Shown here: piece by piece, positions 13,334 to 44,822 of the stretch | How the letters are laid out: every line of letters starts with the position of its first letter | Numbering within the stretch: the stretch's first letter is position 1 | Assembly: GCA_028278025.1 (NCBI GenBank) | Contig: JANQFE010000054.1 | Coordinates: 4,160 to 68,159, forward strand | Direction of reading: 5' to 3' | DNA from: Thermodesulfobacteriota bacterium | GTDB lineage: Bacteria > Desulfobacterota > WTBG01 > CAIYCZ01 > CAIRTM01 | DNA: 64,000 nt | Notes under the pieces: model-generated | Seen by the model: only the letters and a program-made list of their open reading frames with translations | Databases searched by the model: none | Told to the model about the DNA's origin: nothing | Program-made: the position numbers and the translations under genes

Positions 13334-13966
13334 ATGTTAGTGTTAGGCATTCTGGGAAGTCCGAGGATCAACGGCAATTGCAGCAAGCTGCTCACCAAAG
13401 CGCTGGAAGGAGCCCGCAGCACAAGTGCCGAAACCAAAAGAATTGATCTGATAAGCAAGCATATTGAATTTTGCAGAGGATGCAGCACCTGTGTGTATGA
13501 AAACCATGAACTGCCGATTGGAAAATGTCCGCAACAAGACGATATGGAATCATTGTTGGAGGAATACGTGCAGGCCGACGGTTATATTTTTGCTACTCCG
13601 GTGTATGACGGCTTTGTTACCGCTTTAATGAAAATGTTTCTTGAAAGAAAAATTGCTCTTATGTACAGGGATCCTGGTGCATACGGGAAAATACCTGCTG
13701 TCCGGCGGCCGGCTGACTTTAAAAAATGTGCTTCCATGATCGTTACCGGTAATTGCAGTGATGAATACCGGGAGGTTATGGGTGATCCGTGTTTTGAAGG
13801 TATGGAAGCCCATTTAATGATTGAGCAGGTACTGACCATTGACAAATTCTATGTTGGTGGGGTGGAAAACATAACGCAGCAGGTATTTTCTGAAAAACTC
13901 GATGAAGCTTACCGCATGGGTGTACGGCTGGTAGAGGAAATCGGCAAGGCCCAGGCAGAAAATTAA
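13334..13966 (+). CDS. Iron-sulfur flavoprotein-like NAD(P)H-dependent FMN reductase (flavodoxin-like fold)
   Basis: N-terminal LGILGSPRINGN (FMN_red signature) and the compact Cys motif CRGCSTC…C, as in Isf proteins. Confidence 0.6.
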   Translation: MLVLGILGSPRINGNCSKLLTKALEGARSTSAETKRIDLISKHIEFCRGCSTCVYENHELPIGKCPQQDDMESLLEEYVQADGYIFATPVYDGFVTALMKMFLERKIALMYRDPGAYGKIPAVRRPADFKKCASMIVTGNCSDEYREVMGDPCFEGMEAHLMIEQVLTIDKFYVGGVENITQQVFSEKLDEAYRMGVRLVEEIGKAQAEN

Positions 13967-13968
13967 AA

Positions 13969-14664
13969 ATGGCACAGCTTGAAGACATTCACCTCATTAC
14001 ATATGAAAAATTAAAAACCCGGTTTAGTCTGCAGGAATCACCCTTACAGCACCCTTTTCCGCAGCGGCCTCTCAGAATGCTCGGCATTGTGAAAATAGAC
14101 GGCCGGGCCCTGCATTCAGTAAAATTTCTGCGCGTTCTTATTATGAAAACAACGTTCATGTCCCGCGGCGTCCGTTCAATATTCTTATGTCCGCAGGCAG
14201 AGCTCCACCAACCTGTTTTCAGTTGTGAAAGCATTTTTTTTGGAAAAAAACGCGTTTTTCTTGTTGACGTGCAGCAGGCGTTTCCTTACAGCAGCCATAA
14301 TAATGAAGAATTGTTCGATAAACTTATGTCTATCCGCGAAACCTATTCTGATCTTCTGCATGATACCATCAGACCTGAAGGTAAAATCATGGAGACATTT
14401 TCCAAGGCCTCCTGTTATGTAAAATTAAATGCTGATCAGGACAGCCGAGCACTTGCGCTCTACCATGAATACCTGGACTTCTACCTTGATGTAATCGAAA
14501 AAGCCCATCCTGTACCGGATGAAAGGCTGCCACAAGCCCGACAGGATTTGGATACCTTTGTTGACATAATGATTAACCATGATCCTGCTATGAAAATATT
14601 TGCAAAACTGTTCGGTAAAAAAGGCAGCCGTAAACGGGCCCTGGAACTATTTTATAATCGATAA
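13969..14664 (+). CDS. Hypothetical protein (start uncertain, possibly an internal Met)
   Basis: An ORF with no recognisable domain, sandwiched between the two Isf-like paralogues. Confidence 0.35.
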   Translation: MAQLEDIHLITYEKLKTRFSLQESPLQHPFPQRPLRMLGIVKIDGRALHSVKFLRVLIMKTTFMSRGVRSIFLCPQAELHQPVFSCESIFFGKKRVFLVDVQQAFPYSSHNNEELFDKLMSIRETYSDLLHDTIRPEGKIMETFSKASCYVKLNADQDSRALALYHEYLDFYLDVIEKAHPVPDERLPQARQDLDTFVDIMINHDPAMKIFAKLFGKKGSRKRALELFYNR

Positions 14665-14882
14665 GAAGTCCCCTGACCACCGTCTCTGACAAAACCCAGC
14701 CACTTGAAAATCATAATATTTATAAATCAAGTCCATTGTATTCATACTAAAAACTATTTTTTTTATTTTAGTATTGCAAAATATGTGTTATGCTAATTAA
14801 ATAGTCTATTAACCTCTACCGGTTCTGTAACTCATTTTGTCATTCTACAGATCAGTTCACCAGCTATGCAAAGGAGTAGTAC

Positions 14883-15521
14883 ATGAAAATTTTGGGTTTT
14901 TTGGGTAGTCCTCGACTGAAAGGTAAGTGCAGTAAATTACTGGATAAAGCACTTGAAGGTGCTGCAAGCAAGTCGGCTGAAATTAAAAAGTTTGAACTTA
15001 TAAAGTACAATATTCAATACTGCCGGGGATGCGGCAACTGCTATTTAAAGAAACCTGAACTTTCCATCGGCATATGCCCTTTAAAGGATGATATGGCCTT
15101 GATTCTTGAGGAATACACTCAGGCTGACGGTTATATATTTGCCAGCCCGGTATATGACATGTTTATAACTGCGTTGATGAAAACCTTTGTTGAGAGAATG
15201 ATAGCCCTTACCTACAAGCCTCCCAGCGATCATGCTAAAATACCCGATGCGCGTACCGGCATCGCCGCTAACTTTACAAAGATGGCTTCCATTATTATTA
15301 CCGGTAACTGTGCTGATGAGCTGCGAGAAGTTATGGGTGAGCCCTGTTTCGAATCCTTTGACGGACATTTGATGATACAGCAGGTCGACACCGTTGATAC
15401 ATTTTATGTTGGCGGACTTGAATATATGACCGACGAAATATTTGAAAAAAGACTGGATACAGCCTATCAGCTGGGGGTGCGATTAGTAGAAAAAATTGAA
15501 AAAGCCCGGCAACATCTTTAA
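14883..15521 (+). CDS. Iron-sulfur flavoprotein-like NAD(P)H-dependent FMN reductase, paralogue of 13334..13966
   Basis: Colinear similarity to 13334..13966 over the full length (LGFLGSPRLKGKCSKLLDKALEGA…CRGCGNC…EEYTQADGYIFASPVYD…). Confidence 0.6.
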   Translation: MKILGFLGSPRLKGKCSKLLDKALEGAASKSAEIKKFELIKYNIQYCRGCGNCYLKKPELSIGICPLKDDMALILEEYTQADGYIFASPVYDMFITALMKTFVERMIALTYKPPSDHAKIPDARTGIAANFTKMASIIITGNCADELREVMGEPCFESFDGHLMIQQVDTVDTFYVGGLEYMTDEIFEKRLDTAYQLGVRLVEKIEKARQHL

Positions 15522-17240: not shown

Positions 17241-17426
17241 TTACTCTTTTCGGTTTTTCTTTTTAATTATAGCAGCGTTGGGACATACCCGCGCACAGGC
17301 TCCGCACTCGACACAGGTTTCCTGATTGATACTGTAATACCATTCGTATTCTTCGATAGAATCAGTTGGGCAAATTTCCCAGCAGGTTCCGCATATTATG
17401 CAATTTTCAGTTATATAATAGGCCAT
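17241..17426 (-). CDS. 2x[4Fe-4S] ferredoxin
   Basis: Two cysteine motifs, CIICGTCWEICP and CVECGACARVCP, in 61 aa. Confidence 0.8.
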   Translation of the reverse strand: MAYYITENCIICGTCWEICPTDSIEEYEWYYSINQETCVECGACARVCPNAAIIKKKNRKE

Positions 17427-17452
17427 GGGATTCTCTCCTTGTAAACGTACGG

Positions 17453-18139
17453 TTACATTACCTCTCCACTGGATATATTCTCAATGTTTTCAACAATGAG
17501 CGGTAAAAGATCATAATGAATAAAGCAGTACATCTCGCCCGGTTTAAGCTTCATAAGAAACCGGGAAGGCGGATCTCCCATATTAAAGGTCATAGTCTTG
17601 GTCCTGTACACAAGCGGCAGTGAATTAGCGCACCAGGCCGTTCCTGAAATGCCGTGTACCAGTTCGCCGGTCTTCCACGTATATACTTTGCACAAACGCA
17701 TAACCCGGTTTGCATCGGCAACAATCATTATCACATCAGGATTTTCAACATCCTCGAGTTTTCCAAGAATCAGATATTTATGATATTTAAAATGGTGGGG
17801 GATCTGCTGGTTCACCCTGCGCATCACCTCTCTGGAGGCATAGGCCTTCTGCGGACCTATGCTGGTTGCCATGCCGACATCAAAATCCTCTTTTGTCATT
17901 CGCCTGTTGCCAATCCCGGAATACACAGCACCACCGCATAGAACATTTTTATTATTAATATAAAACGGTTTGCGCCCCTCTTCCCACACCTCAGAGAACG
18001 TATAACATTCAAATGACATATCATCACCGTAGGGCTCTACACCTTCAGGGACTTCATCACAGAGTTTAATCGCAATAATATCCCGCTCATAGCCTTCTAT
18101 CTCTTTCAGTTTTTGTGCGTATTCTTTGTTTTTACTCAT
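17453..18139 (-). CDS. DUF169-family protein
   Basis: DUF169-like architecture. The start was moved from the track's 18223 to the ATG preceded by GGGAGG (MSKNKEY…). Confidence 0.55.
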   Translation of the reverse strand: MSKNKEYAQKLKEIEGYERDIIAIKLCDEVPEGVEPYGDDMSFECYTFSEVWEEGRKPFYINNKNVLCGGAVYSGIGNRRMTKEDFDVGMATSIGPQKAYASREVMRRVNQQIPHHFKYHKYLILGKLEDVENPDVIMIVADANRVMRLCKVYTWKTGELVHGISGTAWCANSLPLVYRTKTMTFNMGDPPSRFLMKLKPGEMYCFIHYDLLPLIVENIENISSGEVM

Positions 18140-18328
18140 TGGGGCCTCCCTGGTTTCGTGATTAGTAACTTGTAATTCGTGATGGGCAGGAGCACCTACC
18201 GGTGCAATTTTTTTCGCGGCCACAATCCGTTCCTGCTTCTTAATCCTTTAATTCTGAATCATTATTTACTCCTTTCGGCCTGCCTCTTAGCCATTCACTC
18301 TTATCCAGTTGCTCTTTTAATGCTTATT

Positions 18329-19303
18329 TCACATCTGATCAAGCATTTCATCAAGATTCATACCCATTTCTGCCATCTGTTCTTCCATTGACTTTCGTGA
18401 AACCTGCTCATAGCCCTTCTTGCGTGCAAATTCCTCCGAGTTGTTTACAACCATTTCCAGAATCCCCTCAGGCACTTTTTTTAAAATCTGCCCGGCTTCG
18501 TCATTCCACGGCATGCTGAAAGAAATCTCTCCTGTCTGATCAGGAGCCTGCTCTGCAGCCTGTGTTTTTGAATTCTTGCCCTTGTTCTGCCAGAATGGTG
18601 AATGGACCGGTTTGGTCATCTCGCGGGAACGTTTCACATCAACTCTAATATTCTGCAAAATTTTTTCCACATAGTCGGCAAATTCAATTGGAATAATAAC
18701 GAACAGCTGATCCTGTTTAATCCGGTTATGCATTCGGCCCCCAAAATCCCCGCCAACTACCATTACATTTCTAATGTGCCAGGGAACCGCAAAAATCTCT
18801 CCGCACAACGAAGTACCGAAGGTTCCGTAAGGTGGAATACCTTCCTGCGCAAGCCTGCAACCGCCGATCGTATTTGCATTGTGAGGGTTGCAGACAACGA
18901 CAATCCAGTCAACCTGGACACCATCAGGGACCTGATCAAGCGGTGCAGCACCAATTGCTTTTACCATACCGGCAGGCAAAACGGGTGTGCCTGATTTCAG
19001 GCGGGCAGCACCTTCTTCTGTGAAAAAATCACTTGTTTTTGACAGGTACTCGCCAGCCACAATCTCTTTCTTCCCAGGTGTAATACCTGCATGGTGCACA
19101 CCGACTAAACAGTCGTGATGTTCTGCATCAAAGTAGACCTTTTTACCTGCATCCATTGCATAGCGGACAATTGCACAAGGTGTGACCTGTATGGGCTCAA
19201 ATCCCGCCGGGATTGCACCGCGAAACAAACTTATAGCTACCGGATTTCCCCTTACCTTGCCTTTGTTTTTCAATATTTCTGCTAATGCCTTTAAGTCAGC
19301 CAC
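18329..19303 (-). CDS. DUF169-family protein with C-terminal PCP-reductase-like (PF08369-type) tail
   Basis: The N-terminal 250 aa parallel the neighbouring DUF169 protein. The C-terminus (PWNDEAGQILKKVPEGILEMV…ARKKGYEQVS…) resembles the protochlorophyllide-reductase 57-kDa C-terminal domain. Confidence 0.55.
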   Translation of the reverse strand: MADLKALAEILKNKGKVRGNPVAISLFRGAIPAGFEPIQVTPCAIVRYAMDAGKKVYFDAEHHDCLVGVHHAGITPGKKEIVAGEYLSKTSDFFTEEGAARLKSGTPVLPAGMVKAIGAAPLDQVPDGVQVDWIVVVCNPHNANTIGGCRLAQEGIPPYGTFGTSLCGEIFAVPWHIRNVMVVGGDFGGRMHNRIKQDQLFVIIPIEFADYVEKILQNIRVDVKRSREMTKPVHSPFWQNKGKNSKTQAAEQAPDQTGEISFSMPWNDEAGQILKKVPEGILEMVVNNSEEFARKKGYEQVSRKSMEEQMAEMGMNLDEMLDQM

Positions 19304-19425
19304 CGCGACCTCCTTTTGTGAAATTTATTTAATATCCTAAATATTAGCACAACAACTAATAAATATCAAGAAGCCCGATGCTAACGGCCTGGGGGTAGTG
19401 AGAAAATCTTGCTAAATGCGGAGAG

Positions 19426-20358
19426 TTACAATCCCTTGTAAAATTTTTTACCCTCATGACGTATTTCTTGAATCTTTCCTTCACAGAGCATGTTCAGGAT
19501 CCTTTTTTCAATCTCCGCCTCTGTGATACCAAGGGATTGTCTGATTTGTGCAATTGAGCACGGGCGTCTTTTTACAAGCTGTAAGATCCTTTGGCCGGTC
19601 TCTTCCAAGGAGTCGCTTATACTATGTTTATTAAACTCATCAATGAGTTCAGCGGGTTTCCCGAACAGTTTAAGAGCTAACCTGAACACTTCTGGTGAAG
19701 CCGGTTCAATACCGTGCAGAGCAGCAGGTCTTGAAACAGAATTAATCTGGATTTTGTCCGGCCTTATACTCTGAGCAACCGTTGCTATCCTCTCTAACTC
19801 TTGCCTGTTGTCATTAACTCCTTTAACAATCATGACCTCAAGCCAAAGACTGCCCTGAAACTCCTTTCGAAAAGTCTTTATGCCTTCAATAATCTTTGCA
19901 ACATCAAGCTCTGCATGCGGGCAGTTCAGGCGGTCAAACACCTTCGGTGTGACGGCATCCAGCGAGGGGACAACCAGATCAGCCCCCCTAAGGTCACGGC
20001 GAACATCCGGAAGATACAGCAGGGTCCCATTGGTTAACACTGCCACGGGAATAGAACTTATTTGTTTTATTTTTCTGAGAAGCACCCCCAGCGAAGTATT
20101 CAGTGTAGGTTCACCTGAACCGGAAAAGGTTATATAATCTATCTGTTCTCCCCGCGAGAGGGCCCTGACAAGATCGTCGAAGGCGTGATCCGGGTCTACC
20201 CACTGTTTTCTCTCAATGGTCTTTTCTATTGTAGGGCCTACCTGACAGTACACGCAATCAAGCGTACAGGTCTTGCGTGGTACTATATCGACTCCAAGGG
20301 AATACCCCAGTCTGCGCGATGGTACCGGACCAAAAACGTGTGTCATAACTTTTACCAA
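19426..20358 (-). CDS. Radical SAM protein (COG0731-like) with C-terminal winged-helix-like region
   Basis: GPVPSRRLGYSLGVDIVPRKTCTLDCVYCQ contains a CxxxCxxC radical-SAM motif. SGSGEPT matches the SAM-binding GGEP motif. Confidence 0.75.
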   Translation of the reverse strand: MVKVMTHVFGPVPSRRLGYSLGVDIVPRKTCTLDCVYCQVGPTIEKTIERKQWVDPDHAFDDLVRALSRGEQIDYITFSGSGEPTLNTSLGVLLRKIKQISSIPVAVLTNGTLLYLPDVRRDLRGADLVVPSLDAVTPKVFDRLNCPHAELDVAKIIEGIKTFRKEFQGSLWLEVMIVKGVNDNRQELERIATVAQSIRPDKIQINSVSRPAALHGIEPASPEVFRLALKLFGKPAELIDEFNKHSISDSLEETGQRILQLVKRRPCSIAQIRQSLGITEAEIEKRILNMLCEGKIQEIRHEGKKFYKGL

Positions 20359-20420
20359 TTACCAATCACGAATTACCTGTCACGCCATAGCTTCAGCGAC
20401 GGTGGACGAATTACGAATTA
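20356..20420. repeat. Short dispersed intergenic repeat motif (core about AATTCGTGATTGGTAATT / TTCGTAAYTCGT). Related copies at 18161..18195 and 60783..60812
   Basis: Minus strand here: ccttAATTCGTAATTCGTcc…ggtAATTCGTGATTGGTAATTgg. At 60783: gATTCGTAACTCGTGATTGGTGATTAGTA. At 18161: tTTCGTGATTAGTAActtGTAATTCGTGATgg. All three lie in short intergenic spacers. Confidence 0.35.
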
Positions 20421-20966
20421 AGGTTTTTTAATTTGTTTCATAAACCGCTCCTTAATTGCGCGCGGCTCCAGAGGAATCACAGGAACCTCTTCATTCCCCG
20501 GTTCTACCTCTGCAACTATTATTGTCTTTTGCTCTCTGCACCTGGCAAGTGCATTGCAAAGCTCTGTAACGGACTTCACCCTAACAACATACTTATTCCC
20601 CGCACTGTGTGCTATTTCAGCCAAATCTGCTTTTTGGGAAGTATATGTTGGCTGATTGCCTGTGCTGCCGTAAACTTTGTTGTCTATAATAATAAGACAG
20701 AAATTATCAGGTGCATGGTGTGCTATGGTGACCAGAGAACCCATGTTCATTAAAATCGATCCATCACCATCAATCACATAGACAAAGTGTGAACTGCTCA
20801 GTGCCAGCCCAAGACCTATCGAGCTTGCCAGCCCCATCGATCCCAGCATATAGAAATATGCAGGTTTATCGGCAAACGCATAGAGTTCGCGGGAAGGAAA
20901 ACCAAGATTGGCAACCACTAAGCCCTCCTGCCTGGCAACTTCTTTTATAGCATCACCTCGCTTCAT
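20418..20966 (-). CDS. comE: Sulfopyruvate decarboxylase beta subunit (TPP-binding)
   Basis: TPP-binding motif …GSMGLASSIGLGLAL… and …VIDGDGS…N. The start was placed at MKRGDAIKE, so it overlaps the comD stop by 14 nt, the same overlap as at comA/comB. Confidence 0.7.
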   Translation of the reverse strand: MKRGDAIKEVARQEGLVVANLGFPSRELYAFADKPAYFYMLGSMGLASSIGLGLALSSSHFVYVIDGDGSILMNMGSLVTIAHHAPDNFCLIIIDNKVYGSTGNQPTYTSQKADLAEIAHSAGNKYVVRVKSVTELCNALARCREQKTIIVAEVEPGNEEVPVIPLEPRAIKERFMKQIKKP

Positions 20967-21456
20967 CCCAAAGCTCACCTGTAATGAATGCAGCCTGTAA
21001 TAAGCTGCTGTTATATGTCTCTTTGATAAAAGTTTTAAGATTTTCAAGATCCGCTTGTGCAGTTACGGACAGATAATCTATCTTTAGTGTATCTAACAGC
21101 AAAGGGGCTGCTTTTCCCATAGGAATCTGGGCTGATATTTTTTCACCCTGGCCGCCCCGATGACTCATGAGCATAAACAAGGGCAAATGATACAGGGCCG
21201 TAAGCGACATAAGGGCGTTAATGCAGTTGCCCAGTCCTGAATTTTGCATCAGCAGTGCTGGTTTTCTGCCTGCCAGCGCAGCGCCTGCAGCAATACCAAC
21301 ACCCTCCTCCTCCCTGCAAACAGTAATATGCTGAATGGAAAGCCGTGTATCTATTTCAGACAGAATACCTGTCAGCATATTACAGGGTAAACTCACGACA
21401 ATATCAATTCCGGCAGATTCCATTACATCAACTATGAGTCTATCTACCATAAACAC
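20953..21456 (-). CDS. comD: Sulfopyruvate decarboxylase alpha subunit
   Basis: About 167 aa with a TPP-enzyme N-terminal pyrimidine-binding domain (…VSLPCNMLTG…, …GIAAGAALAG…). The split alpha/beta arrangement is typical of ComDE rather than fused phosphonopyruvate decarboxylase. Confidence 0.7.
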   Translation of the reverse strand: MFMVDRLIVDVMESAGIDIVVSLPCNMLTGILSEIDTRLSIQHITVCREEEGVGIAAGAALAGRKPALLMQNSGLGNCINALMSLTALYHLPLFMLMSHRGGQGEKISAQIPMGKAAPLLLDTLKIDYLSVTAQADLENLKTFIKETYNSSLLQAAFITGELWDEAR

Positions 21457-21493
21457 ATTCCCTATTGCCTATTCACTATTCCCTGTTTACTGT

Positions 21494-22144
21494 TCACGGA
21501 GCAATAGTAACAATTTTCTTTCCATCAAAATGCGGGATAACATTAAATATATTGACACGTGTGATAAAATCAATATCTTTACCATAGCCGATATTTATCA
21601 GATGTTGTGCTGCTTGTGATTCTCGTGCAAAGCAGGTTATCAGACTCGTATCAAATATAGTCCTGCTCATACAGGCTTGCAGAGCAAAGGCTACACCAAG
21701 ATCCTCTGTAGCGCCCTTGTGTCCCCCTACTGCAAGTATACAGACGTTTTTGTTTTCAAGATAGGCTGCAATTGATGCAAGATTAAGACTGGAACAGATC
21801 AATGCCTCAGGTAGTCGGCTGAGCAGTGGTATTAAATTTGAAGTTTTAAGGACCAGTGTGGTAAATGGTGATGTATTATAAAATTCTACAAGCTCCACCG
21901 GGGAATTGCCTAAATCGTAGCCCTCAATTTTCTCTCCTCCGGATTCCCCGGCAATAACAGCTCCATTATTCCGTAAAGCAAAAGCCTCTTCATCATCCAG
22001 GACAGGCATTATTTTTTCAACACCAAGAGCCAGTGCAGTTACTATGGTGCTCGAAGCCCGCAGGTTATCAATAACTACCACAGCCTCTTGTGCGCTTATC
22101 TCATCCAGCAACGTGTTGCCGATACCTATCCTATAATTTGCCAC
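21494..22144 (-). CDS. comB: 2-phosphosulfolactate phosphatase
   Basis: ComB family (PF04029-like) pattern. A probable GTG start (VANYRIG…) gives a 14-nt overlap with comA. Confidence 0.65.
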   Translation of the reverse strand: MANYRIGIGNTLLDEISAQEAVVVIDNLRASSTIVTALALGVEKIMPVLDDEEAFALRNNGAVIAGESGGEKIEGYDLGNSPVELVEFYNTSPFTTLVLKTSNLIPLLSRLPEALICSSLNLASIAAYLENKNVCILAVGGHKGATEDLGVAFALQACMSRTIFDTSLITCFARESQAAQHLINIGYGKDIDFITRVNIFNVIPHFDGKKIVTIAP

Positions 22145-22907
22145 ATGTGTCGCCTCGAATGCCCCGTCTGAGTGTTTCCAGGGGTATAACATCGTCAGGC
22201 TTAATATTGCCCAGATTTACATCACTGTTAAAAAGTATAATAAGACGAGCCTGCTGGCTTTTATCCGGAGCTTCAAACATAATATTTTCAATGCCAATGC
22301 TGTCTACCAGCTGTTGTGCCATCTCTTCTTTGAGTCCTCCAGTATCATCATAGACCCCCAGGCTTTTGCCTCCTTCCCTGGCTTCTATAATAATGAGATG
22401 GGCTCCTGCTTCCAGATCACTTTGGGCCTCGGTTGTGCGGTCCTCCAAGGAAAGCTTGCGGTCTTCTGCAGGATCTTTCTTGCCGACCTCAGAGATAACA
22501 TAAAAACCCATTGCCCGGGCAGTCCGTATAATCTCTGCCTTCTGTTCAATATTTATAGGTACTACTCCATTGGATACCTCAATAATCTCAAAACCAAACC
22601 CCTGGCAATATTCAAGGAACTGTTCTAATTTTTTTTGCTGATACATAATTTCAAGCAGCGTACCGCCATTGCCAACCCGAATAGCATGTTTGCGGTAAAC
22701 ACTAATTTTCTCACGAATTATATCCTCTGAAAAAAGCCGTGGTGTACCCCACCCCAGTTTTATTATATCAATGTATACAGCCATATGCATGAGATCCTGC
22801 ACATGATGCAACCCTAACCCCTTATCAAGAACCATGGTAAGCCCTTTTCGTCTCGGCTTTTCGCTGCGTACAGGTATATCCAGAAAACCAAATGCGTTAT
22901 CTTTCAT
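22131..22907 (-). CDS. comA: Phosphosulfolactate synthase
   Basis: …YIDIIKLGWGT… is the hallmark (2R)-phospho-3-sulfolactate synthase motif. The start was placed at MKDNAFGF. Confidence 0.7.
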   Translation of the reverse strand: MKDNAFGFLDIPVRSEKPRRKGLTMVLDKGLGLHHVQDLMHMAVYIDIIKLGWGTPRLFSEDIIREKISVYRKHAIRVGNGGTLLEIMYQQKKLEQFLEYCQGFGFEIIEVSNGVVPINIEQKAEIIRTARAMGFYVISEVGKKDPAEDRKLSLEDRTTEAQSDLEAGAHLIIIEAREGGKSLGVYDDTGGLKEEMAQQLVDSIGIENIMFEAPDKSQQARLIILFNSDVNLGNIKPDDVIPLETLRRGIRGDTCGKL

Positions 22908-23460
22908 GGTACGCGTCCATCCTTTTACTAAATATACATCCACAGTATTGTTGACGATAAAATCCGTAACGCCGGCTTAATTCACAACTTTTTCTGAAAC
23001 CATCTTTTTTTTTGAAATCATACTCAAGAAACTGTATTTTGTATTCTTTAGCCGCTTCAGTACCAATCGTATTAATGACACGGGCATTTTTGTGAGGACT
23101 TATCGTAAGTGTTGTTGTGACGTTCGGTATACCTTTCTGGTGAGCAGCCTCAGCTACCTTTGCAAGCCTTATCCGAAAGCACATAGTGCATCTGTGTTTA
23201 CCCTCTGGTTCATCTTCCAACCCCCTTATCTGTGCAAACCAGGCTGATGCATCATACTGTGGGACTATAAGCTTTATTTTTTTTATTTCACAAAGCTTTT
23301 CTAGATCCTTCAGACGTTTTGAATATTCGCTTTCTGGCTGGATGTTAGGGTTGTAAAAAAAAGCGGTGATTCTGTATGTTTGTGAAAGCGTATCAATAAC
23401 ATGCGCAGTGCATGATGCACAACAGGTATGCAGCAGAAGTTCTTCGTTCACGCTCTGCAC
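22897..23460 (-). CDS. queH: Epoxyqueuosine reductase QueH (DUF208)
   Basis: LLLHTCCASC and the C-terminal CGC cysteines are typical of QueH. GTG start. Confidence 0.7.
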   Translation of the reverse strand: MQSVNEELLLHTCCASCTAHVIDTLSQTYRITAFFYNPNIQPESEYSKRLKDLEKLCEIKKIKLIVPQYDASAWFAQIRGLEDEPEGKHRCTMCFRIRLAKVAEAAHQKGIPNVTTTLTISPHKNARVINTIGTEAAKEYKIQFLEYDFKKKDGFRKSCELSRRYGFYRQQYCGCIFSKRMDAYHER

Positions 23461-23905
23461 GACAGTTCCTATCTTCTTTTGCCCCTGCCGATCCGTTTCA
23501 CTTTTCTTTTACGGCGCTTTCTTTTAGCTGTTTGCTGTCGGCTGATTTTGCCCATCTTTACTCCTTAATAAGTATTAAAGAAAATATAAGTTTTACCTGT
23601 AGTATTACGTTCTTTCTTGCAATTCAGTAAGCAATTTTCATCTTTTACTATTCACTATCTTAAGCAAATGTTACAGAGCCTACAAAAGTATCTCATTTTC
23701 CTGTTCATTTCAACTATTTTTCTGGTGTAGCTGTTTGCTCAAGAATATGCCGGTTTTTTTAAATAGTAATAAATACTTTATTATAAAAAATCATAATAAT
23801 ACCGCATACAAAAAAAGCCCCTGAACCATGTCAGGGGCTTATTACATACATGCATATCCACTCCTGAGGACTTGCTGCTATTAGGCTGGCATAATATAAA
23901 AAAAT

Positions 23906-28257: not shown

Positions 28258-30441
28258 TCACAGGTGCATATTGTCACGAATCATGCGAACAAGAGTTGCA
28301 TTTTCACCGTGACCTGTCATGTTTGCCGTTATCTTACCCTTGATAGGACGACCCAGTAAATACAGGTCACCCATCATATCCAGAATTTTGTGCCGGACAA
28401 ATTCATCCGGAAACCTGAGGTCAGTATTAATAATTTTTTCATCATCTATCAAGATGAAATTATTTAACCGACCGCCATCGGCCAAGCCCTTTTGTGACAA
28501 CGCTTCGATATCTTTCACAAATCCAAATGTGCGTGCAGGTGCAATTTCATTTTTAAAAACTTCTTCATCATCCAAGACAAAGGTAAATTCCTGAACCCCT
28601 ATGGGCTTAGGATAACGCAGCGTATAATGAATTGAAAATTTTTCCGATGGTTCAACTACAACAAATTTACTTTTGGGGTTAACATCACCAACAGTATAAC
28701 GATCAGTAATAACAATTTCTTCCAGTTCCTCATCCTGTTCCTCGATGCCGGCATCTTCAATAATCTGGCAGAAGTCAACTGCAGATCCATCCATAATTGG
28801 TACTTCATTGTTGATTTTAATCATCAGATTAGTTATGCGGTAGGCATGCAGGGCCGCAAGAAAATGTTCTGTGGTGCGGGCAACAGTGTTTGTGCTTTGC
28901 AAACACGTTGCATAGTCGGTTGACACAACATAGTCTATATCAGCAGGAATAGTTTCACCACTGGAAATACTGCCAAAAATAATTCCGCTGTTTGGCGGCA
29001 GGGGTGTCAGCATAAGACCGGTCTTGTCCCCTGAATGCAGTCCGCGACCGCTCATGACCATGCTGCGCTTGAGGGTTCTTTGAAGCCGTTTCCTGGTCTT
29101 TTTCTCACGCCCGAAGACAATACCATATTCCTTAATATATTTCTTTAAATTTTTCTCCTTAATATATAATTTTTTAGATGTTTTTTTAACATCCTTATCA
29201 TTTTTTCTAAGATGATAAAGAATATAATTTTTTCTCCAAGCAGCTTCTGCTTCTTCAAAGCTTTTATACCGTTCATAGAACCGGGCCATGCTGGATTGCA
29301 TATCATCTCGCAATGAAAGCGGAATATCATGGGCGGAAATATTCTTGGTCGGGACTGAAACAACCAGTTTTTCAGCCAGATTTTTGACTTCCTTCACATT
29401 ACCAGGCCAATCATAATTTACCAGTATTTCAACAGCATCATCTTCCAGATGTTTCTCCCTGAACCCATACTCCTCACAAAATTGTGAAATAAAAAATGTA
29501 AGCAGTAAAGGTATATCAGACCTCCTATGCCGTAATGCGGGCACACGCAGAGTATGACTGAAACATTCCAGCAGCTCAGGCTGAAAAACGCCTGCCTCTA
29601 CAATATCATCCGGGTCTTTTATCGTTGCTGCAATAATTCGCATTCCGGATTCTTTATGTTTTGATGATGAAATACTTTTAGTAATTCGTTTTTGTAATTT
29701 GACCGGTAGTGCATCAACTGCCTCAAGAAACACCGTACAGTCTGAAGTGTTTTGCAAAATGCCCTGCTTTGCGGAAGCCTCTTCTTTGCTCTTGTGAGAG
29801 CCAAAAAGCTTCACTTCAAGTTCCTGAGGGCTATAAAACGAACAATTAATTTTTATAAAAGAGACCGCATCTTTTTTTGACTGGGCATGTATATGCCAAG
29901 CAATCAATTCTTTCCCGCTGCCAAGCTCGCCCTGGAGAAAGATATGCTCATTGTGTGTGGCCAACTGTCCAATCTCTTCCTTTATAACCAAAACAGCAGG
30001 TGTTTCCCCTGTCAAGTCAGGCACAATCTCTTCGTCTACCGGCTTCTCAGGCTGCACAGCAGTTGTAGAAGCTTTTTGTTTCTCGGTAACTTTTTTGATG
30101 ATATTAATTACCGTATCCAGAGAAAATGGTTTTTCCAGGAAATCAAATGCTCCCTGCTTTACAGCCTGGACTGCGGTGTTGACAGTACCATGCCCTGTCA
30201 TCATAACTACATCAATATCGGAATCAAAATCCTTGATTGCCGTGAGTGTTGTCATTCCATCCATTTCCGGAAGCCATATGTCAAGGAAAACAATGTCGAC
30301 CGGTTGGAATTTGATTATCTCCATTGCTTTCATTCCATCCGAAGCAGTCAAGACAATGTACCCCTCATCCTCAAGACTGCCGCGCAATGAATTCACAATC
30401 GTATTTTCATCATCAACCAGTAAGATTACCGGGGTCTTCAT
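28258..30441 (-). CDS. lpxC: Fusion protein: NtrX-like response regulator (REC + degenerate sigma54 AAA+ + Fis HTH) fused to complete LpxC, UDP-3-O-acyl-N-acetylglucosamine deacetylase
   Basis: The N-terminus is a REC domain (LLVDDE…DIVFLDIWLPEMDG). This is followed by a sigma54-type AAA+ domain with Walker A GELGSGKE but without a GAFTGA loop, and then a Fis-like HTH. The C-terminal 274 aa (about 28261..29082) carry all LpxC hallmarks: QRTLKR, GLHSG, TEHFLAAL, PIMDGSA, ARTFGF..DIE.L…GLA.GG, FVRHKILDMMGD and TGHGEN. A single continuous frame of 727 aa runs through all of these. Confidence 0.8.
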   Translation of the reverse strand: MKTPVILLVDDENTIVNSLRGSLEDEGYIVLTASDGMKAMEIIKFQPVDIVFLDIWLPEMDGMTTLTAIKDFDSDIDVVMMTGHGTVNTAVQAVKQGAFDFLEKPFSLDTVINIIKKVTEKQKASTTAVQPEKPVDEEIVPDLTGETPAVLVIKEEIGQLATHNEHIFLQGELGSGKELIAWHIHAQSKKDAVSFIKINCSFYSPQELEVKLFGSHKSKEEASAKQGILQNTSDCTVFLEAVDALPVKLQKRITKSISSSKHKESGMRIIAATIKDPDDIVEAGVFQPELLECFSHTLRVPALRHRRSDIPLLLTFFISQFCEEYGFREKHLEDDAVEILVNYDWPGNVKEVKNLAEKLVVSVPTKNISAHDIPLSLRDDMQSSMARFYERYKSFEEAEAAWRKNYILYHLRKNDKDVKKTSKKLYIKEKNLKKYIKEYGIVFGREKKTRKRLQRTLKRSMVMSGRGLHSGDKTGLMLTPLPPNSGIIFGSISSGETIPADIDYVVSTDYATCLQSTNTVARTTEHFLAALHAYRITNLMIKINNEVPIMDGSAVDFCQIIEDAGIEEQDEELEEIVITDRYTVGDVNPKSKFVVVEPSEKFSIHYTLRYPKPIGVQEFTFVLDDEEVFKNEIAPARTFGFVKDIEALSQKGLADGGRLNNFILIDDEKIINTDLRFPDEFVRHKILDMMGDLYLLGRPIKGKITANMTGHGENATLVRMIRDNMHL

Positions 30442-38155: not shown

Positions 38156-39013
38156 ATGAAGGTATCGGTGGTTATCCCTGCCCATAACGAAAGCCACTCA
38201 ATTGGGAGGGTTATTACATCCGTGCGTAACAAAGTTCCGGGATGCGAAATTTTTGTGGTTAATGATGCTTCTACCGACGACACAGTAAAAATTGCCCAGG
38301 AGGCAGGCGCCTGGGTTTTTAGCCATCCTTACAATATGGGAAACGGTGCGGCAGTTAAAACCGGCATACGCATGGCAACAGGTGATAAGATCGTTTTAAT
38401 AGATGGAGATGGACAACATAATCCTGAGGATATCCCCCGTTTGTTAGAGGCTTCCAAGAATTATGATATGGTGGTTGGTGCGCGCAGCCCCCGAACCCAG
38501 GCAAACATACTCAGAAGATGTGCTAATTTCATGTACAATATCCTGGCCAGTTATGTTACCAGAAGAAAAATTAAGGACTTGACCTCAGGGTTTCGGGTGG
38601 TAGATCGTAAAACAGTTTTAAATTACCTAAGCCTGCTTCCAAATACTTTTTCCTATCCCACCACCATTACATTATCGTATTTGCGCAGCGGTAGATCCGT
38701 ATGTTATATCCCCATACATGCGGGCAAAAGACGTGGAAAAAGTAAAATACGGCTCCTGCGTGATGGTGTCCGCTTTTTCTTAATTATCATTAAAATATCC
38801 ACACTTTTTTCACCGCTGCTGATCTTTTTACCGGTGAGTTTTACTTCCTTTATGATTGGAATGCTGTACTATGCTTACACCTACCTTGCCCAGCACCGTT
38901 TTACTAATATGTCGGCACTTTTATTTATCAGCTCTGTAATAATCTTTATGATGGGACTTATAAGTGAACAGATAACACAGCTGCGCTATGATCGCCTGGA
39001 TAACGGCGGCTAA
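38156..39013 (+). CDS. GT2-family polyprenyl-phosphate glycosyltransferase (DPM1/ArnC/GtrB-like) with C-terminal TM helices
   Basis: VVIPAHNE, VNDASTD and DGDGQH (DxD) motifs, followed by C-terminal hydrophobic segments. Confidence 0.8.
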   Translation: MKVSVVIPAHNESHSIGRVITSVRNKVPGCEIFVVNDASTDDTVKIAQEAGAWVFSHPYNMGNGAAVKTGIRMATGDKIVLIDGDGQHNPEDIPRLLEASKNYDMVVGARSPRTQANILRRCANFMYNILASYVTRRKIKDLTSGFRVVDRKTVLNYLSLLPNTFSYPTTITLSYLRSGRSVCYIPIHAGKRRGKSKIRLLRDGVRFFLIIIKISTLFSPLLIFLPVSFTSFMIGMLYYAYTYLAQHRFTNMSALLFISSVIIFMMGLISEQITQLRYDRLDNGG

Positions 39014-39026
39014 CAGGAACCTGTAT

Positions 39027-41264
39027 ATGGCACGTAAAAAAAAGCAAAGGGCCAGCAGTAAAAAAAAAACAGCTGCACCGGCAGCTACCCTTACAAAAGG
39101 CAAAGATTCAAAGATAATCAATATTTCAAAAAAAGGGGCGGTTTCGGCTGAAAACTTTTTTAAAAGCCTGTCAAAATATAGCCGCTGGATAGAGATTTGC
39201 GCGCTTGTGGCAATTATTGTCACCGGCGTTCTTTTTCGTCTGGAAGACCTGAGCCAGTGGCAGAACCGTGAACAGAAAGCCTTTTTTGATAATCAGCCTC
39301 TGCACACTACATTTGATGCGTGGTTTTATCTAAGCCTTGCTAAAGATATTGCCGAAGACACCTATTATCCTATTGACGAAAAGCGCGGTGTCCCTGACAG
39401 TCCTCCCCGCCCTTCCCCGCCACCGCTTATTTCTTGCCTGACTGCTGTAATTGCAAAAACAACATCATTTTCTATGAGCTGGATTGGTGCCATACTGCCT
39501 CCTCTGCTTGGTCCTCTGCTTGCTATTCCGCTGTTTTTGCTCGGACGCTACTATGGCGGTCCTATTATGGGACTCAGCGCTGCGCTGATGGCGCTTCTCT
39601 ATCCATTCTATGTATACCGGAGTAATGTGGGCAGGTTCGATACAGACTGTATGAATGTTACCTGGGCTGCATGTGCTGCGTATCTTTTTTTAAGGTTCGG
39701 CATTCTGGAAACAAAAAAAAGATACATTTATTTGCTCGGCGGGTTTATCGTGTATGCGCTGTTTTTATGGTGGTGGGATCAGACTCCTGCCGTAGTGGGC
39801 GCCATTACGTTTCTTCCTCTGGCAGTAGCTCTGGCATTATTCTATCGCCCGCCCAAAAAAGAAGCCTTCCTGCTGTATGGCGGTCTTGGTGCCGGAGTGG
39901 TCATACTTCTTGCAGTTAACGGTATTGCTATGCCGGTAAAAATCTTACAGTCAATCTGGCACCAGTATCTGTATATTACCAAGGATGCCTCCGGAGATTT
40001 CCCCAACATCGGCCTTACCATAAGCGAGCAGTCCCGGCCGTCTTTTGACCTGGTATTAGGCTATACCACAAAGAACATCCTTGCCTTTGTTTTTAGTGTT
40101 GCCGGAATTATTTTGCTTGTGTGGAAACGTTTTAAAGATGCCCTTTTTCTGCTTTCTTTGATTATTTTATCTATTATGGCGGTCACCACTGCAAACCGTT
40201 TCCTGATTTTCCTGATTCCCATCCTGGCGCTCGGCGCGGGCTTTTCCCTGTCGATGCTCTGGGGCCTTCGTAAGCAATTCACAGCGCTTACAGTTGTTTG
40301 CCCCGTGCTGATACTGTGTATGTGCATCCCGCTCTATAAGGCCAATTCAGATTACGTGCAGTGGCCTAAAGAATCCGCGCCTATCATTGCCGGCATGGAC
40401 ACTGCCAAAAAGAAAACACCTTCAGACGCTGTAATCTGGGCCTGGTGGGACCATGGGTATGCCCTTACTTACTATGCCCGGCGTGCCACCATCAATGACG
40501 GTTCCATTCACAGCGGTGAACGAACCGTATATACGGGAATCCCGCTTGCTACAGACAGTTTTCAGCTTGCTGCAAACTTTATGCAATTCTACGTCATCCG
40601 CGGCATGAAGGGCATCAAGAAATTACACAATGCAACTGATGATAATCCCGGCAGCGGGTTAACCCTGCTTAAGAAGATCCTCCGCGCCGGCCCTGATAAA
40701 GGCCGGGCACTTATAGCAGAGGCTAACTTGAAGCCGGTTGGAAACTGGAAAACTGTTGATGACTGGCTGCGATTCTTTTATCCTCCCGAAAAGCGCCCGG
40801 TTTACCTGTTCGTTGACAACCTTTTAACTAAGACCAGCTACTGGTGGCACTGGTTCGGCACCTGGGACATGCAAAAGCAGGAAGGCCTTCACCCCGTGTA
40901 CCAGCCTTTCTACAACGTTAAGAAAAAAGGTGGCATGATAAGAGGCACCGGCGGGCTGCAAATAAATATGGAGACAGGTGATCTTTACACAAAAAACAAT
41001 CGCATCAAAATATCTAATTTGTTAATCCGCAAGAAAAAGGATATTAAAGAACAAAATTACGGCACTAAAAAAGGTTATAGATTTGAGATGCTTGAGCAGG
41101 CTCGCTACGGTGCCCTGATGGATGCACGAATTTCAGAATCAGTTTTTAATAAACTGTTTATCCGCCATATCTTTCCGAAAAAATATTTCCGCCCCGTAGA
41201 AATCAACTCCCCGTTTTATCAGCTCTGGGAAGTCCGGGGTGATTCCCTCCCAGATGCTGCCTGA
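39027..41264 (+). CDS. AglB/PglB/STT3-family oligosaccharyltransferase homologue
   Basis: About 13 predicted TM helices and then a soluble domain containing WAWWDHGY, a variant of the WWDYG catalytic motif. The start was placed at MARKKKQ to avoid overlapping the GT2 gene. Confidence 0.6.
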   Translation: MARKKKQRASSKKKTAAPAATLTKGKDSKIINISKKGAVSAENFFKSLSKYSRWIEICALVAIIVTGVLFRLEDLSQWQNREQKAFFDNQPLHTTFDAWFYLSLAKDIAEDTYYPIDEKRGVPDSPPRPSPPPLISCLTAVIAKTTSFSMSWIGAILPPLLGPLLAIPLFLLGRYYGGPIMGLSAALMALLYPFYVYRSNVGRFDTDCMNVTWAACAAYLFLRFGILETKKRYIYLLGGFIVYALFLWWWDQTPAVVGAITFLPLAVALALFYRPPKKEAFLLYGGLGAGVVILLAVNGIAMPVKILQSIWHQYLYITKDASGDFPNIGLTISEQSRPSFDLVLGYTTKNILAFVFSVAGIILLVWKRFKDALFLLSLIILSIMAVTTANRFLIFLIPILALGAGFSLSMLWGLRKQFTALTVVCPVLILCMCIPLYKANSDYVQWPKESAPIIAGMDTAKKKTPSDAVIWAWWDHGYALTYYARRATINDGSIHSGERTVYTGIPLATDSFQLAANFMQFYVIRGMKGIKKLHNATDDNPGSGLTLLKKILRAGPDKGRALIAEANLKPVGNWKTVDDWLRFFYPPEKRPVYLFVDNLLTKTSYWWHWFGTWDMQKQEGLHPVYQPFYNVKKKGGMIRGTGGLQINMETGDLYTKNNRIKISNLLIRKKKDIKEQNYGTKKGYRFEMLEQARYGALMDARISESVFNKLFIRHIFPKKYFRPVEINSPFYQLWEVRGDSLPDAA

Positions 41265-43061: not shown

Positions 43062-44822
43062 TCATTGTCTATCCGTGACAGACACAGCAAATTCCAAAAC
43101 ATGCTTTGCAAGAATTTCACCAACCCGGGGGTCATCATTTGCCTGCTGAGCGATCTCCCAGGTACCCGTGTACTGTTCCTGAACAGGCATGTGCGAATTA
43201 AGCGAATCCGATGCCGGATCATAGCCAAGATGTCCGTAATTGCTCACATCAAAAGCAAGCGAAGGATCAAGATTACTGATAGCTTCGTCAATCGGAGTCT
43301 GGCGGGGGGGAGGATAGGGTCTTCCGTCAGCACAGCCGCCCATTTCAAAGCAGCACTCAGCACCGTCGCAGTCAGTAGTGACATAGGTCCCCCAGTAATC
43401 GGCAAAAGGATCCCCATAGTCAGGGAATCTTGCGTAATCAAAAACACCCCATTTCGCCCATGTTCTCATGCCAATCTCTTTGCCGATCTGGTTGAAGAGC
43501 TCAACGCCGTGGAGAGCGTTTTCAGTCAGTAACTGCGGCCAACCAATAATAATATGTTTGATACCACGATCCTTTAAATATTCCAGTCCATCCCAGTAGC
43601 GGTATCCCCAGGGATGGCCCGACAGCGGCTCATCTGCCTCATGCAGGTAGCATGCAGCAAAAGATTCACCCCTCATGTTGCGAGTATATTCCTCGATGTC
43701 GTTCTCAGGATTCACCTCTTTTTCTCCACCAAAGGAGCCGATTATGTTGTCGGGGTCAAAACCGGGATGCCGTTCAAGCAGAAGTGTTTTAATATTTTCA
43801 TTAAACAGATTAGTATCATTCATTTTAGGGTCAAAATAACGTCTACTTTTCCTAAATAGGCCGTGGTTAAAAAATAAAATACCGGTTTGATTGTCAGGGA
43901 CTGTTTCAGACAGGACAGCTTCGATTCCTTCCACATGAAGCAAGGCATAGTCCATATCTTCAATCAGCGGATTCTGGCCTGCTGCCACATCAGCATGCTG
44001 GTCTGTGGTTGGCTCGCCATACCAGGGAGTCCAGTCCTCAGGCTCGCTCGGATATGAGCGTTCCATAAGACCGGTATAATCATTAACCCAGGTGAGTTCA
44101 ACATCCTTCAGGTGCTTGGCATTCCATTGTTCCAGCACGAGCTTGCACATCTGGACAACATCATAGCCCTTGTAAAAACGAACTCCCCCGACCGCGGTGT
44201 CGATCACGATAATATGCTGTACACCTTTTTTAAGCAGCCGCTCTACCGGACCGTCCACGTTGTATCGTTGCGGGTCACAGTCTTCCCAGGGGCCATCATC
44301 CAGCCCTTCGCCGCAGTAGTTAATATGCACCCCTTTTTCATCGGGCAGATTATAAATATATCTTGGATAAGCATAGTGGTCAGGATAGCCTGCCGGGCTC
44401 CAACCTGCCCAGTCAACCTCAAAAGTTATACCGTGGGTGTTTTTGTCCAGTTCGGTCTTCATATCCTGTAGTTGCGTCATCGTAAAGTCCATGAACGGCT
44501 CAACCCCTCCTACCCGGTCATAGGTAAAACGAAACCGCTCGGCATACTCGGCCACAAAAGGGTTCAATTCTGGGGTTACAAGCACAGGCCACATTGCCGG
44601 ATTTTTTATAACAAATTTATGCACATGATCATACGGGTCATACGATGCCATCTGGACTGCCACGTCCCACAGGTACTGAAGTTTGTAGGTATCGGCTGTC
44701 CCGTGGACAACATAGATGACACCAATTTTTGTTTTTGTCACCGGAGCACAGGTCAGCATAGCAGCTGAAAGACTCAAGACTAAAATGCATAGCATGATTT
44801 TGTTTCGCACATGTGACCTCAT
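43062..44822 (-). CDS. Secreted protein of unknown function, member A of a three-gene paralogous family (possible class-II chelatase-like fold)
   Basis: Signal peptide, then KIGVIYVVHGTADTY and a later ILFFNHGL. Both are hydrophobic-strand-HG elements reminiscent of CbiK/CbiX chelatase half-domains. The same N-terminal pattern recurs in 45722..48364 and 49538..52108. Confidence 0.6.
   Translation of the reverse strand: MRSHVRNKIMLCILVLSLSAAMLTCAPVTKTKIGVIYVVHGTADTYKLQYLWDVAVQMASYDPYDHVHKFVIKNPAMWPVLVTPELNPFVAEYAERFRFTYDRVGGVEPFMDFTMTQLQDMKTELDKNTHGITFEVDWAGWSPAGYPDHYAYPRYIYNLPDEKGVHINYCGEGLDDGPWEDCDPQRYNVDGPVERLLKKGVQHIIVIDTAVGGVRFYKGYDVVQMCKLVLEQWNAKHLKDVELTWVNDYTGLMERSYPSEPEDWTPWYGEPTTDQHADVAAGQNPLIEDMDYALLHVEGIEAVLSETVPDNQTGILFFNHGLFRKSRRYFDPKMNDTNLFNENIKTLLLERHPGFDPDNIIGSFGGEKEVNPENDIEEYTRNMRGESFAACYLHEADEPLSGHPWGYRYWDGLEYLKDRGIKHIIIGWPQLLTENALHGVELFNQIGKEIGMRTWAKWGVFDYARFPDYGDPFADYWGTYVTTDCDGAECCFEMGGCADGRPYPPPRQTPIDEAISNLDPSLAFDVSNYGHLGYDPASDSLNSHMPVQEQYTGTWEIAQQANDDPRVGEILAKHVLEFAVSVTDRQ

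Follow-up and report, generated by a model that had tools for sequence, protein, structure and literature searches.

An archaeal-type comABDE operon headed by a small basic open reading frame and queH, with a predicted route to sulfoacetaldehyde, in an uncultured Thermodesulfobacteriota lineage

The archaeal pathway for coenzyme M (CoM, 2-mercaptoethanesulfonate), as described in Methanocaldococcus and the Methanobacteriales, relies on ComA, ComB, ComC, ComDE and ComF (MMP16). Conversion of sulfoacetaldehyde to CoM was recently assigned by genetics to MMP16, with L-aspartate-semialdehyde sulfurtransferase, abbreviated L-ASST, as a backup (PMC12068725). Here, we analyze a related gene cluster from a bacterium, carried by a 64-kb stretch of Thermodesulfobacteriota DNA (contig JANQFE010000054.1; this whole stretch is hereafter called the window). 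The listing of open reading frames (ORFs) gives a minus-strand run of queH, comA, comB, comD, comE and a radical S-adenosylmethionine (SAM) gene at 19426-23460, and all six ORFs were found where an earlier note on this DNA had placed them. Judging from sequence comparisons, the four com genes probably encode the archaeal, phosphoenolpyruvate (PEP)-dependent route to sulfoacetaldehyde and, with an unannotated small ORF, queH and usually the radical-SAM gene, they probably form one co-transcribed operon that is characteristic of an uncultured Thermodesulfobacteriota lineage.

Archaeal-like comABCDE genes were reported in 2021, with unknown function, from every genome of the Desulfobacterota class Candidatus (Ca.) Anaeropigmentia as well as from 14 other bacterial genomes (Murphy et al., bioRxiv 10.1101/2021.03.22.436540), so that this kind of cluster is already known. 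Both cases share the phylum, the archaeal-type gene set and a function that is open; as far as its accessible part goes, the 2021 report is a KEGG-level inventory that does not cover operon structure, linkage to queH or to a small ORF, the radical-SAM neighbor, or the absence of MMP16. The G+C content of the window (about 44%) and its pigment-related oddities are compatible with its belonging to Ca. Anaeropigmentia; an Rfam scan of the 64 kb detected no rRNA. What is added here is the structure of the operon, the lack of linked ComC and MMP16 genes, evidence that speaks against a pathway role of the radical-SAM gene, the broad spread of ComDE among non-methanogens, and the small ORF.

The window cluster resembles the archaeal CoM pathway in that the archaeal equivalog cut-offs are exceeded by ComA, ComD and ComE, and in that separate alpha and beta subunits make up the decarboxylase. 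It differs by its bacterial host, by the absence of ComC and MMP16 from both cluster and window, by the small ORF and queH at its head and the radical-SAM gene usually found at its end, and by the fact that no methyl- or alkyl-CoM reductase context is seen here. The cysteate-synthase route of Methanosarcinales likewise converges on sulfopyruvate and ComDE, whereas the present cluster uses ComA and ComB. In Bacillus subtilis, YitD and YitC are ComA and ComB homologues and form a sulfolactate-making pair (PDB 1U83). To our knowledge, Bacillus has no ComDE and its pathway ends at sulfolactate, unlike the present operon, which would continue to sulfoacetaldehyde via ComDE. In the XcbB1-C1-D1-E1 pathway of Xanthobacter autotrophicus Py2, the first enzyme is likewise a ComA homologue that uses PEP and sulfite (PMC9457059). 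However, according to Murphy et al., comA is the one archaeal com gene with a homologue there (xcbB1), and the other steps involve unrelated enzymes and follow a different route, while the present cluster has ComB and ComDE.

Profile scores bear out the identities proposed in the earlier note for the four Com proteins and establish their family membership. ComA scores 297.8 bits with PF02679 (cut-off 25.2) in a Pfam scan and 297.1 with TIGR03849 (equivalog cut-off 280) in an NCBIfam scan, aligns over its full length (residues 20-257) with Methanocaldococcus jannaschii ComA (1QWG, E 3.5e-66) and contains the YIDIIKLGWGT motif quoted previously; by homology, it is a predicted phosphosulfolactate synthase acting on PEP and sulfite. 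ComB belongs to PF04029 (124.4 bits, cut-off 26.4) and matches PDB 2yyv (E 2e-22). ComD and ComE exceed the cut-offs of the sulfopyruvate decarboxylase models, with 184 bits against 148 for TIGR03845 and 232 against 221.5 for TIGR03846, respectively. The Gly-rich motif GSMGLASSIGLGLAL quoted earlier for ComE is indeed present, but the classical thiamine pyrophosphate (TPP) motif, GDGS...(N)DN, lies downstream of it: GDG...N is found within IDGDGSILMNMGSLVTIAHHAPDNFCLIIIDN, and residues D66, G67, D68, G69 and N96 are invariant or nearly so among 23 homologues.

Could the TPP pair instead be a phosphonopyruvate decarboxylase, or a decarboxylase of some other 2-oxoacid, in which case the cluster would not be a sulfonate pathway? 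Among solved structures, the one nearest to ComE (9iz3, E 2e-24) is a putative beta subunit of phosphonopyruvate decarboxylase, and the PDB offers no ComDE structure to compare. Nevertheless, the two proteins reach only 91 and 144 bits with the phosphonopyruvate decarboxylase model TIGR03297, whose cut-off is 312.5, while both sulfopyruvate models are passed; in addition, comDE is translationally coupled to comA and comB, and PEP mutase was not found by Pfam among the roughly 55 ORFs of the 64-kb window. Phosphonopyruvate decarboxylase was accordingly rejected on profile scores, and a non-sulfonate pathway is very improbable.

The order and coupling of these genes, as well as the conservation of the block, are observed directly. 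With starts at ATG 22907 (comA), GTG 22144 (comB), ATG 20966 (comE) and ATG 20346 (radical SAM), queH and comA overlap by 11 nt, comA and comB by 14 nt, and comD and comE by 14 nt, while gaps of 37 and 71 nt separate comB from comD and comE from the radical-SAM gene, respectively. The overlaps of 11-14 nt described earlier thus hold for three junctions, depending on the start codons, but not for the last two. Among these starts, the one used for comA is more likely than the alternative GTG 22943, and those used for comE and the radical-SAM gene are more likely than the ends of the longer listed ORFs (20418-21047 and 19426-20358, respectively); comB may start at GTG 22144, which gives its overlap with comA. 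No terminator-like site was found between the genes of the operon. A strong terminator-like hairpin upstream marks the end of the preceding HTH_17 gene and the upstream limit of the operon, and a promoter-like site beyond the radical-SAM gene suggests that a separate transcription unit begins there. Tight junctions, the lack of an internal terminator, a terminator on the upstream side and a gene order shared by 20 lineages all bear out the operon organization previously proposed. A riboswitch or other known RNA leader upstream of the operon was ruled out, as none of the Rfam families attained its gathering score anywhere in the 64 kb, and matches in the leader were at chance level.

A scan with a ComE alignment, using one genome per GTDB species, returned 80 loci. 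The closest relatives of the window ComE (56-65% identity) are found in a few Thermodesulfobacteriota metagenome-assembled genomes (MAGs); the other loci belong to many methanogens, Asgard archaea, Bathyarchaeia, Nitrospirota, Chloroflexota, and Alpha- and Gammaproteobacteria. Across these 80 loci, tblastn recovered the order queH-comA-comB-comD-comE-radical SAM only in the closest Thermodesulfobacteriota. When metagenomes were included and lineages were counted as distinct at a ComA identity of 95% or less, the block, whose last gene varies as described below, was present in 20 lineages, all from one uncultured Thermodesulfobacteriota lineage. A rough neighbor-joining tree of ComE makes the Desulfobacterota clade monophyletic and does not allow a donor lineage to be resolved. 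Clustering of the neighboring ORFs showed that MMP16 adjoins ComDE in 13 methanogen loci and in none of the bacterial or Asgard loci, that ComC adjoins it in Methanobacteriales, and that cysteate synthase does so in Methanosarcinales, Nitrospirota, Chloroflexota and Bathyarchaeia.

In the proposed route, ComA would combine sulfite and PEP into (2R)-phosphosulfolactate, and ComB would dephosphorylate it to (R)-sulfolactate. Oxidation to sulfopyruvate would fall to a dehydrogenase encoded elsewhere, either ComC or an enzyme of the malate/lactate-dehydrogenase type, and the split TPP enzyme ComDE would decarboxylate the sulfopyruvate to sulfoacetaldehyde. Finally, sulfoacetaldehyde could be turned into CoM by a COG1900 sulfurtransferase encoded elsewhere, or into another C2 sulfonate such as isethionate or taurine. 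Which substrates the enzymes really use, that the dehydrogenase is unlinked, and what becomes of sulfoacetaldehyde are inferred here. As ComC, MMP16 and cysteate synthase are not linked to the cluster, the locus itself would account for the path from PEP and sulfite to sulfoacetaldehyde, i.e., for steps 1, 2 and 4 of the archaeal pathway. This agrees with the earlier note, in which the cluster led to sulfoacetaldehyde and its end product was left open.

Several observations weigh against this reading. The pathway is incomplete as seen, because the dehydrogenase, MMP16/COG1900, a reductase and an aminotransferase were not found. These searches compared the window ORFs with Pfam and used tblastn with ComC, MMP16 and cysteate synthase from archaeal loci, the identities of the queries being confirmed separately and ComC being represented by two sequences. 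ComC (Ldh_2, NF040650) had no match among the window ORFs and tblastn detected it neither in the window nor in the bacterial loci, so that its absence from the cluster, already pointed out in the earlier note, extends to the whole 64 kb. MMP16 (TIGR03287, COG1900) similarly had no match in the window or in the bacterial loci. Cysteate synthase, sulfoacetaldehyde reductase and aminotransferase genes were found neither in the window nor within 8-10 kb of the related loci. Regarding the enzymes themselves, ComA satisfies the family thresholds of both Pfam and NCBIfam, but ComB satisfies that of Pfam only and falls under every NCBIfam equivalog cut-off (best NF002057, 108.7 against 235; TIGR00298, 94 against 175), and its function is therefore assigned from Pfam family membership together with its position between comA and comDE. 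Lastly, ComE exceeds its cut-off by just about 10 bits.

A catabolic role, in which sulfolactate would be degraded through ComDE as in marine Alphaproteobacteria, was also considered, since ComDE homologues of SAR116-type Alphaproteobacteria adjoin ABC-transporter and permease genes. However, ComA and ComB catalyze biosynthetic steps (condensation of PEP with sulfite, then dephosphorylation), Pfam scans revealed no transporter, Xsc, sulfolyase or other desulfonation genes near the operon, nor any Xsc elsewhere in the 64 kb, and the rough ComE tree sets the Desulfobacterota clade apart from the alphaproteobacterial one. The biosynthetic nature of ComA and ComB and the lack of transporter or desulfonation genes nearby instead support the biosynthetic reading, and a degradative cluster is highly unlikely.

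For a biosynthetic operon, CoM and another C2 sulfonate such as isethionate or taurine are about equally likely as end products. The lineage could make CoM, used as a thiol cofactor or redox buffer, if a COG1900 enzyme encoded elsewhere, i.e., an MMP16 homologue or L-ASST, converted sulfoacetaldehyde to 2-mercaptoethanesulfonate. Besides the archaeal equivalog matches of ComA, ComD and ComE, this is in line with the full comABCDE set annotated in a Desulfobacterota class by Murphy et al. (bioRxiv 10.1101/2021.03.22.436540), and with the partial substitution of MMP16 by L-ASST in Methanosarcina (PMC12068725). The DUF39/COG1900 family serves homocysteine synthesis in Desulfovibrio, and sulfate reducers commonly carry a COG1900 enzyme for this purpose (PMC4045070). 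Nonetheless, MMP16/COG1900 was not found in the window or near the bacterial loci, in contrast to the 13 methanogen loci in which it adjoins ComDE; no CoM-using enzyme was seen in the window; and Murphy et al. found no alkene/CoM enzymes in Ca. Anaeropigmentia (bioRxiv 10.1101/2021.03.22.436540). CoM as the actual product is therefore possible, though rather doubtful.

Alternatively, sulfoacetaldehyde could be converted to isethionate, taurine, sulfoacetate or the head group of a sulfonolipid, and thus give a compatible solute or a membrane component rather than CoM. This possibility, which we hold tentatively, is consistent with the lack of a linked CoM synthase, with the mostly hypersaline origin of the published Anaeropigmentia genomes (Murphy et al.), and with genes for a trehalose-phosphatase-family protein, a histidine phosphatase and a ManC-type nucleotidyltransferase that adjoin the operon in the window and in its relatives. 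The neighborhood argument is a weak one, however, and no reductase, aminotransferase or acyltransferase was found in or near the operon. Either outcome would be of interest: CoM as product would extend the range in which this cofactor is known and bring a thiol cofactor into the physiology of sulfate reducers, whereas isethionate or taurine would make the operon a new anaerobic supplier of C2 sulfonates to sulfidogenic bacteria. The reason for the presence of archaeal CoM genes in non-methanogenic bacteria is still unexplained, and the genes are seen here in Asgard archaea, Nitrospirota and Chloroflexota as well; a compact operon conserved in 20 lineages offers a handle on which sulfonate anaerobes make from sulfite and PEP.

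Heading the operon is an unannotated ORF, new here and not mentioned in the earlier note, whose 28-aa product MGKISRQQTAKRKRRKRKVKRIGRGKRR consists of 57% Lys and Arg and whose stop lies 8 nt ahead of the queH start. It is found upstream of queH in all seven related loci identified through other genes (L001 4722, L003 4642, L005 7331, L006 7620, L084 4842, L090 4820 and L091 4702; L numbers designate the loci used for comparison), with 25-27 of 28 residues identical, while the neighboring enzymes are just 50-70% identical. Relative to the window copy, these sequences carry 13-20 synonymous and only 1-3 non-synonymous codon differences, which indicates strong purifying selection on the peptide. 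Searching with a degenerate DNA pattern for the first 11 codons returned 21 metagenome contigs, and queH and comA-comB-comD-comE follow in every one of sufficient length (L093-L113 also carry the ORF); in total, the small ORF is present in 20 of 20 distinct lineages, with the consensus MGKISRQQ[ST]AKRK..KVKRIGRGKRR. At 87 nt, it does not appear in the gene calls supplied with the related loci. The peptide has no match in Pfam, in NCBIfam or in any PDB chain, ribosomal proteins among them; it could be a small protein that binds RNA or the ribosome, or else serve as an arrest or leader peptide. Standard gene callers overlook this small basic ORF, which is a concrete new object for testing.

The second gene encodes a QueH protein (PF02677, 223.6 bits, cut-off 23.5) whose entire length can be aligned with Thermotoga QueH (7lc5/9dco, E 4e-32) and which keeps the HxCC, RCxxC and YCGC motifs. 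The conserved core of the operon is the small ORF, queH and comABDE, with the radical-SAM gene as a frequent but non-obligatory last gene. The linkage of queH and the small ORF to the com genes is perfectly conserved and all examples come from one lineage, which may reflect either inherited synteny or a shared function. In the latter case, the small peptide, QueH and ComABDE, together with the frequent TYW1-like radical-SAM protein, might deliver a C2 sulfonate to a nucleic acid or a cofactor, for instance in a sulfonated tRNA or a queuosine-type modification, rather than make CoM; or they might constitute a new, MMP16-independent bacterial route to CoM of which the radical-SAM protein and the peptide would be the missing parts. 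We give such scenarios only a slim chance.

The position of the radical-SAM gene had also suggested, in the earlier note, a link to the pathway and possibly to sulfur insertion. The protein contains the CTLDCVYCQ motif noted previously, and its sole Pfam or NCBIfam match above cut-off is PF04055 (61.6 bits, cut-off 29.5). MoaA, TYW1 and the other named families are matched weakly and under cut-off, including 21 bits against 270 for the LipS2 model; an identity as TYW1/wyosine synthase did not hold either, with 30.9 against 318 for TIGR03972 and no auxiliary-cluster cysteines found. An AlphaFold model (predicted local distance difference test score, pLDDT, of 87) shows a radical-SAM core forming a partial TIM barrel, followed at residues 247-305 by three helices and a beta-hairpin, in agreement with the winged-helix-like tail proposed before. 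The family is very large, with at least 8000 significant homologues, and is named "wyosine synthetase" (COG0731) at JGI.

Some features favor this enzyme being a member of the pathway, for example for sulfur insertion or another missing step: the gene follows comE in 9 of the 11 distinct lineages whose sequence continues for 1.8 kb or more beyond comE, its first 4 nt coincide with the end of comE in L084 and L090, and the window has no terminator between the two genes. The homologues located in the same com block are 50-61% identical, and their flanks are conserved in part and differ in part. However, in L093 and L112, the operon stops at comE, is followed by convergent unrelated genes, and lacks the radical-SAM gene. 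The gene was not detected by tblastn beside ComDE in any of the 75 other ComDE loci; a single Methanothrix locus has a copy (43% identical) 5 kb away on the opposite strand, which is missing from sister loci. Among these loci, occurrence of the gene beside comDE, which the earlier note had proposed to check, is thus restricted to the closest Thermodesulfobacteriota. Furthermore, no com genes were found near homologues of 48-50% identity in other phyla. In an alignment of 34 homologues, C27, C31 and C34 of the CX3CX2C motif are the only invariant cysteines, with no further invariant or near-invariant cysteine that could bind an auxiliary Fe-S cluster of the LipA, BioB or MiaB type, and Foldseek retrieves generic radical-SAM relatives only (TYW1, NifB, pyruvate formate-lyase (PFL) activase and viperin, with template modeling (TM) scores of about 0.5-0.6). 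With just the three canonical cysteines and the winged-helix tail, a role in sulfur insertion is unsupported; moreover, making a thiol from the aldehyde is a reductive thiolation, a step now attributed to MMP16 (PMC12068725). Given an adjacency limited to one syntenic lineage and lost in two of 11 cases, participation of this enzyme in the pathway is improbable. The radical-SAM gene is probably co-transcribed with the operon, yet as an accessory, non-core neighbor, and it is best read as lineage-specific and dispensable for the pathway.

Outside the com lineage, radical-SAM homologues adjoin genes for DUF6485, DUF6125, a class-I methyltransferase and a class-IV aminotransferase (L086 8001-11123; L088 7012-8936 and 13886-14851; L092 7786-11302), and this neighborhood may be the real functional context of the family. 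In one Saccharicenans genome, a homologue lies about 1.4 kb from queF, with queC-queD-queE farther upstream.

The wider set of ComDE loci provided further observations. In Nitrospirota (Thermodesulfovibrionia; L062, L066, L069, L072, L073 and L080), cysteate synthase is encoded directly upstream of ComDE. Farther upstream (about 1-9.4 kb from ComDE) lies a gene for a TfrB/HdrD-like Fe-S protein with CCG domains, whose best NCBIfam match, under cut-off, is subunit B of the CoM/CoB-dependent fumarate reductase, and an MtrH-family methyltransferase, above cut-off, is also encoded at these loci. This hints that such bacteria may use a CoM-like thiol. A cytoplasmic-looking SsuA/NMT1-like protein, of a sulfonate-binding family but under cut-off, is encoded beside ComDE in L078 (5575-6519), L082, L014, L073, L074 and L029, i.e., in Bathyarchaeia, Thermoplasmata, Nitrospirota, Ca. 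Desulfatibia and Methanothrix, and copies farther from ComDE exist in Methanothrix (L011, L025, L028, L035, L065 and L077). In Asgard archaea, ComDE occurs in Freya-, Jord-, Hermod-, Thor- and Promethearchaeia (L008, L009, L037, L044, L048, L058, L061, L070 and L071); L008 also holds ComA, ComB and a cysteate-synthase-like gene, and no MMP16 was found within 10 kb of Asgard ComDE.

Coordinates of the operon and of the adjacent features in the window
Feature	Positions	Strand	Basis or remark
Intrinsic-terminator-like hairpin	23815..23840	-	10-bp stem, 6 G-C pairs, followed by a T run
Small basic ORF, 28 aa	23469..23555	-	AAGGAG ribosome-binding site; first gene of the conserved block
queH, epoxyqueuosine reductase (DUF208 family)	22897..23460	-	PF02677; Cys motifs
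comA, (2R)-phospho-3-sulfolactate synthase (predicted)	22131..22907	-	PF02679, TIGR03849; ORF listing extends to GTG 22943
comB, 2-phosphosulfolactate phosphatase family	21494..22192	-	PF04029; PDB 2yyv; between comA and comDE
comD, sulfopyruvate decarboxylase alpha subunit (TPP_enzyme_N; predicted)	20953..21456	-	TIGR03845
comE, sulfopyruvate decarboxylase beta subunit (TPP_enzyme_C, GDG...N; predicted)	20418..20966	-	TIGR03846
Radical-SAM protein (COG0731-like)	19426..20346	-	PF04055; CTLDCVYC; C-terminal winged helix
Promoter-like site TTGATA-17-TAATAT, extended TG	19341..19369	-	Within the 122-nt gap ahead of the DUF169 genes
DUF169 protein with PCP_red-like tail	18329-19303	-	Pfam/NCBIfam; outside the conserved block
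DUF169 protein	17453-18223	-	Pfam/NCBIfam; outside the conserved block
2x[4Fe-4S] ferredoxin	17241-17426	-	Pfam/NCBIfam; outside the conserved block

The DUF169-DUF169-ferredoxin genes that follow the operon (17241-19303) were rejected as members of the pathway, as no related locus has them and a promoter-like site of their own precedes them. They form an insertion present in the window genome and in no relative, and the C-terminal tail of the first DUF169 (COG2043) protein resembles the C-terminal domain (PCP_red) of the protochlorophyllide reductase BchB/ChlB. At 13334-15521 on the plus strand, a gene resembling ferredoxin-dependent bilin reductases (PF05996, 54 bits) is flanked by two NADPH-dependent FMN-reductase-like genes, which is unexpected in a genome of a strictly anaerobic Desulfobacterota type.

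Elsewhere in the window, a minus-strand gene at 28258-30441 encodes an unusual 727-aa fusion of a response-regulator receiver, a sigma-54 AAA+ activator with its lid domain and a full LpxC deacetylase domain (285 bits), the latter occupying the usual place of the DNA-binding helix-turn-helix domain; the fusion is kept in related MAGs (L001 1-1535 and L084 1-2006). Three large minus-strand ORFs of 586, 880 and 856 aa (43062-44822, 45722-48364 and 49538-52108, respectively), near genes for a TetR regulator and a PNPOx-like protein, have no Pfam match at E <= 1e-6. Lastly, a family-2 glycosyltransferase gene followed by a gene for an STT3/PglB-type oligosaccharyltransferase of 758 aa (38156-41264, plus strand) suggests N-linked protein glycosylation.

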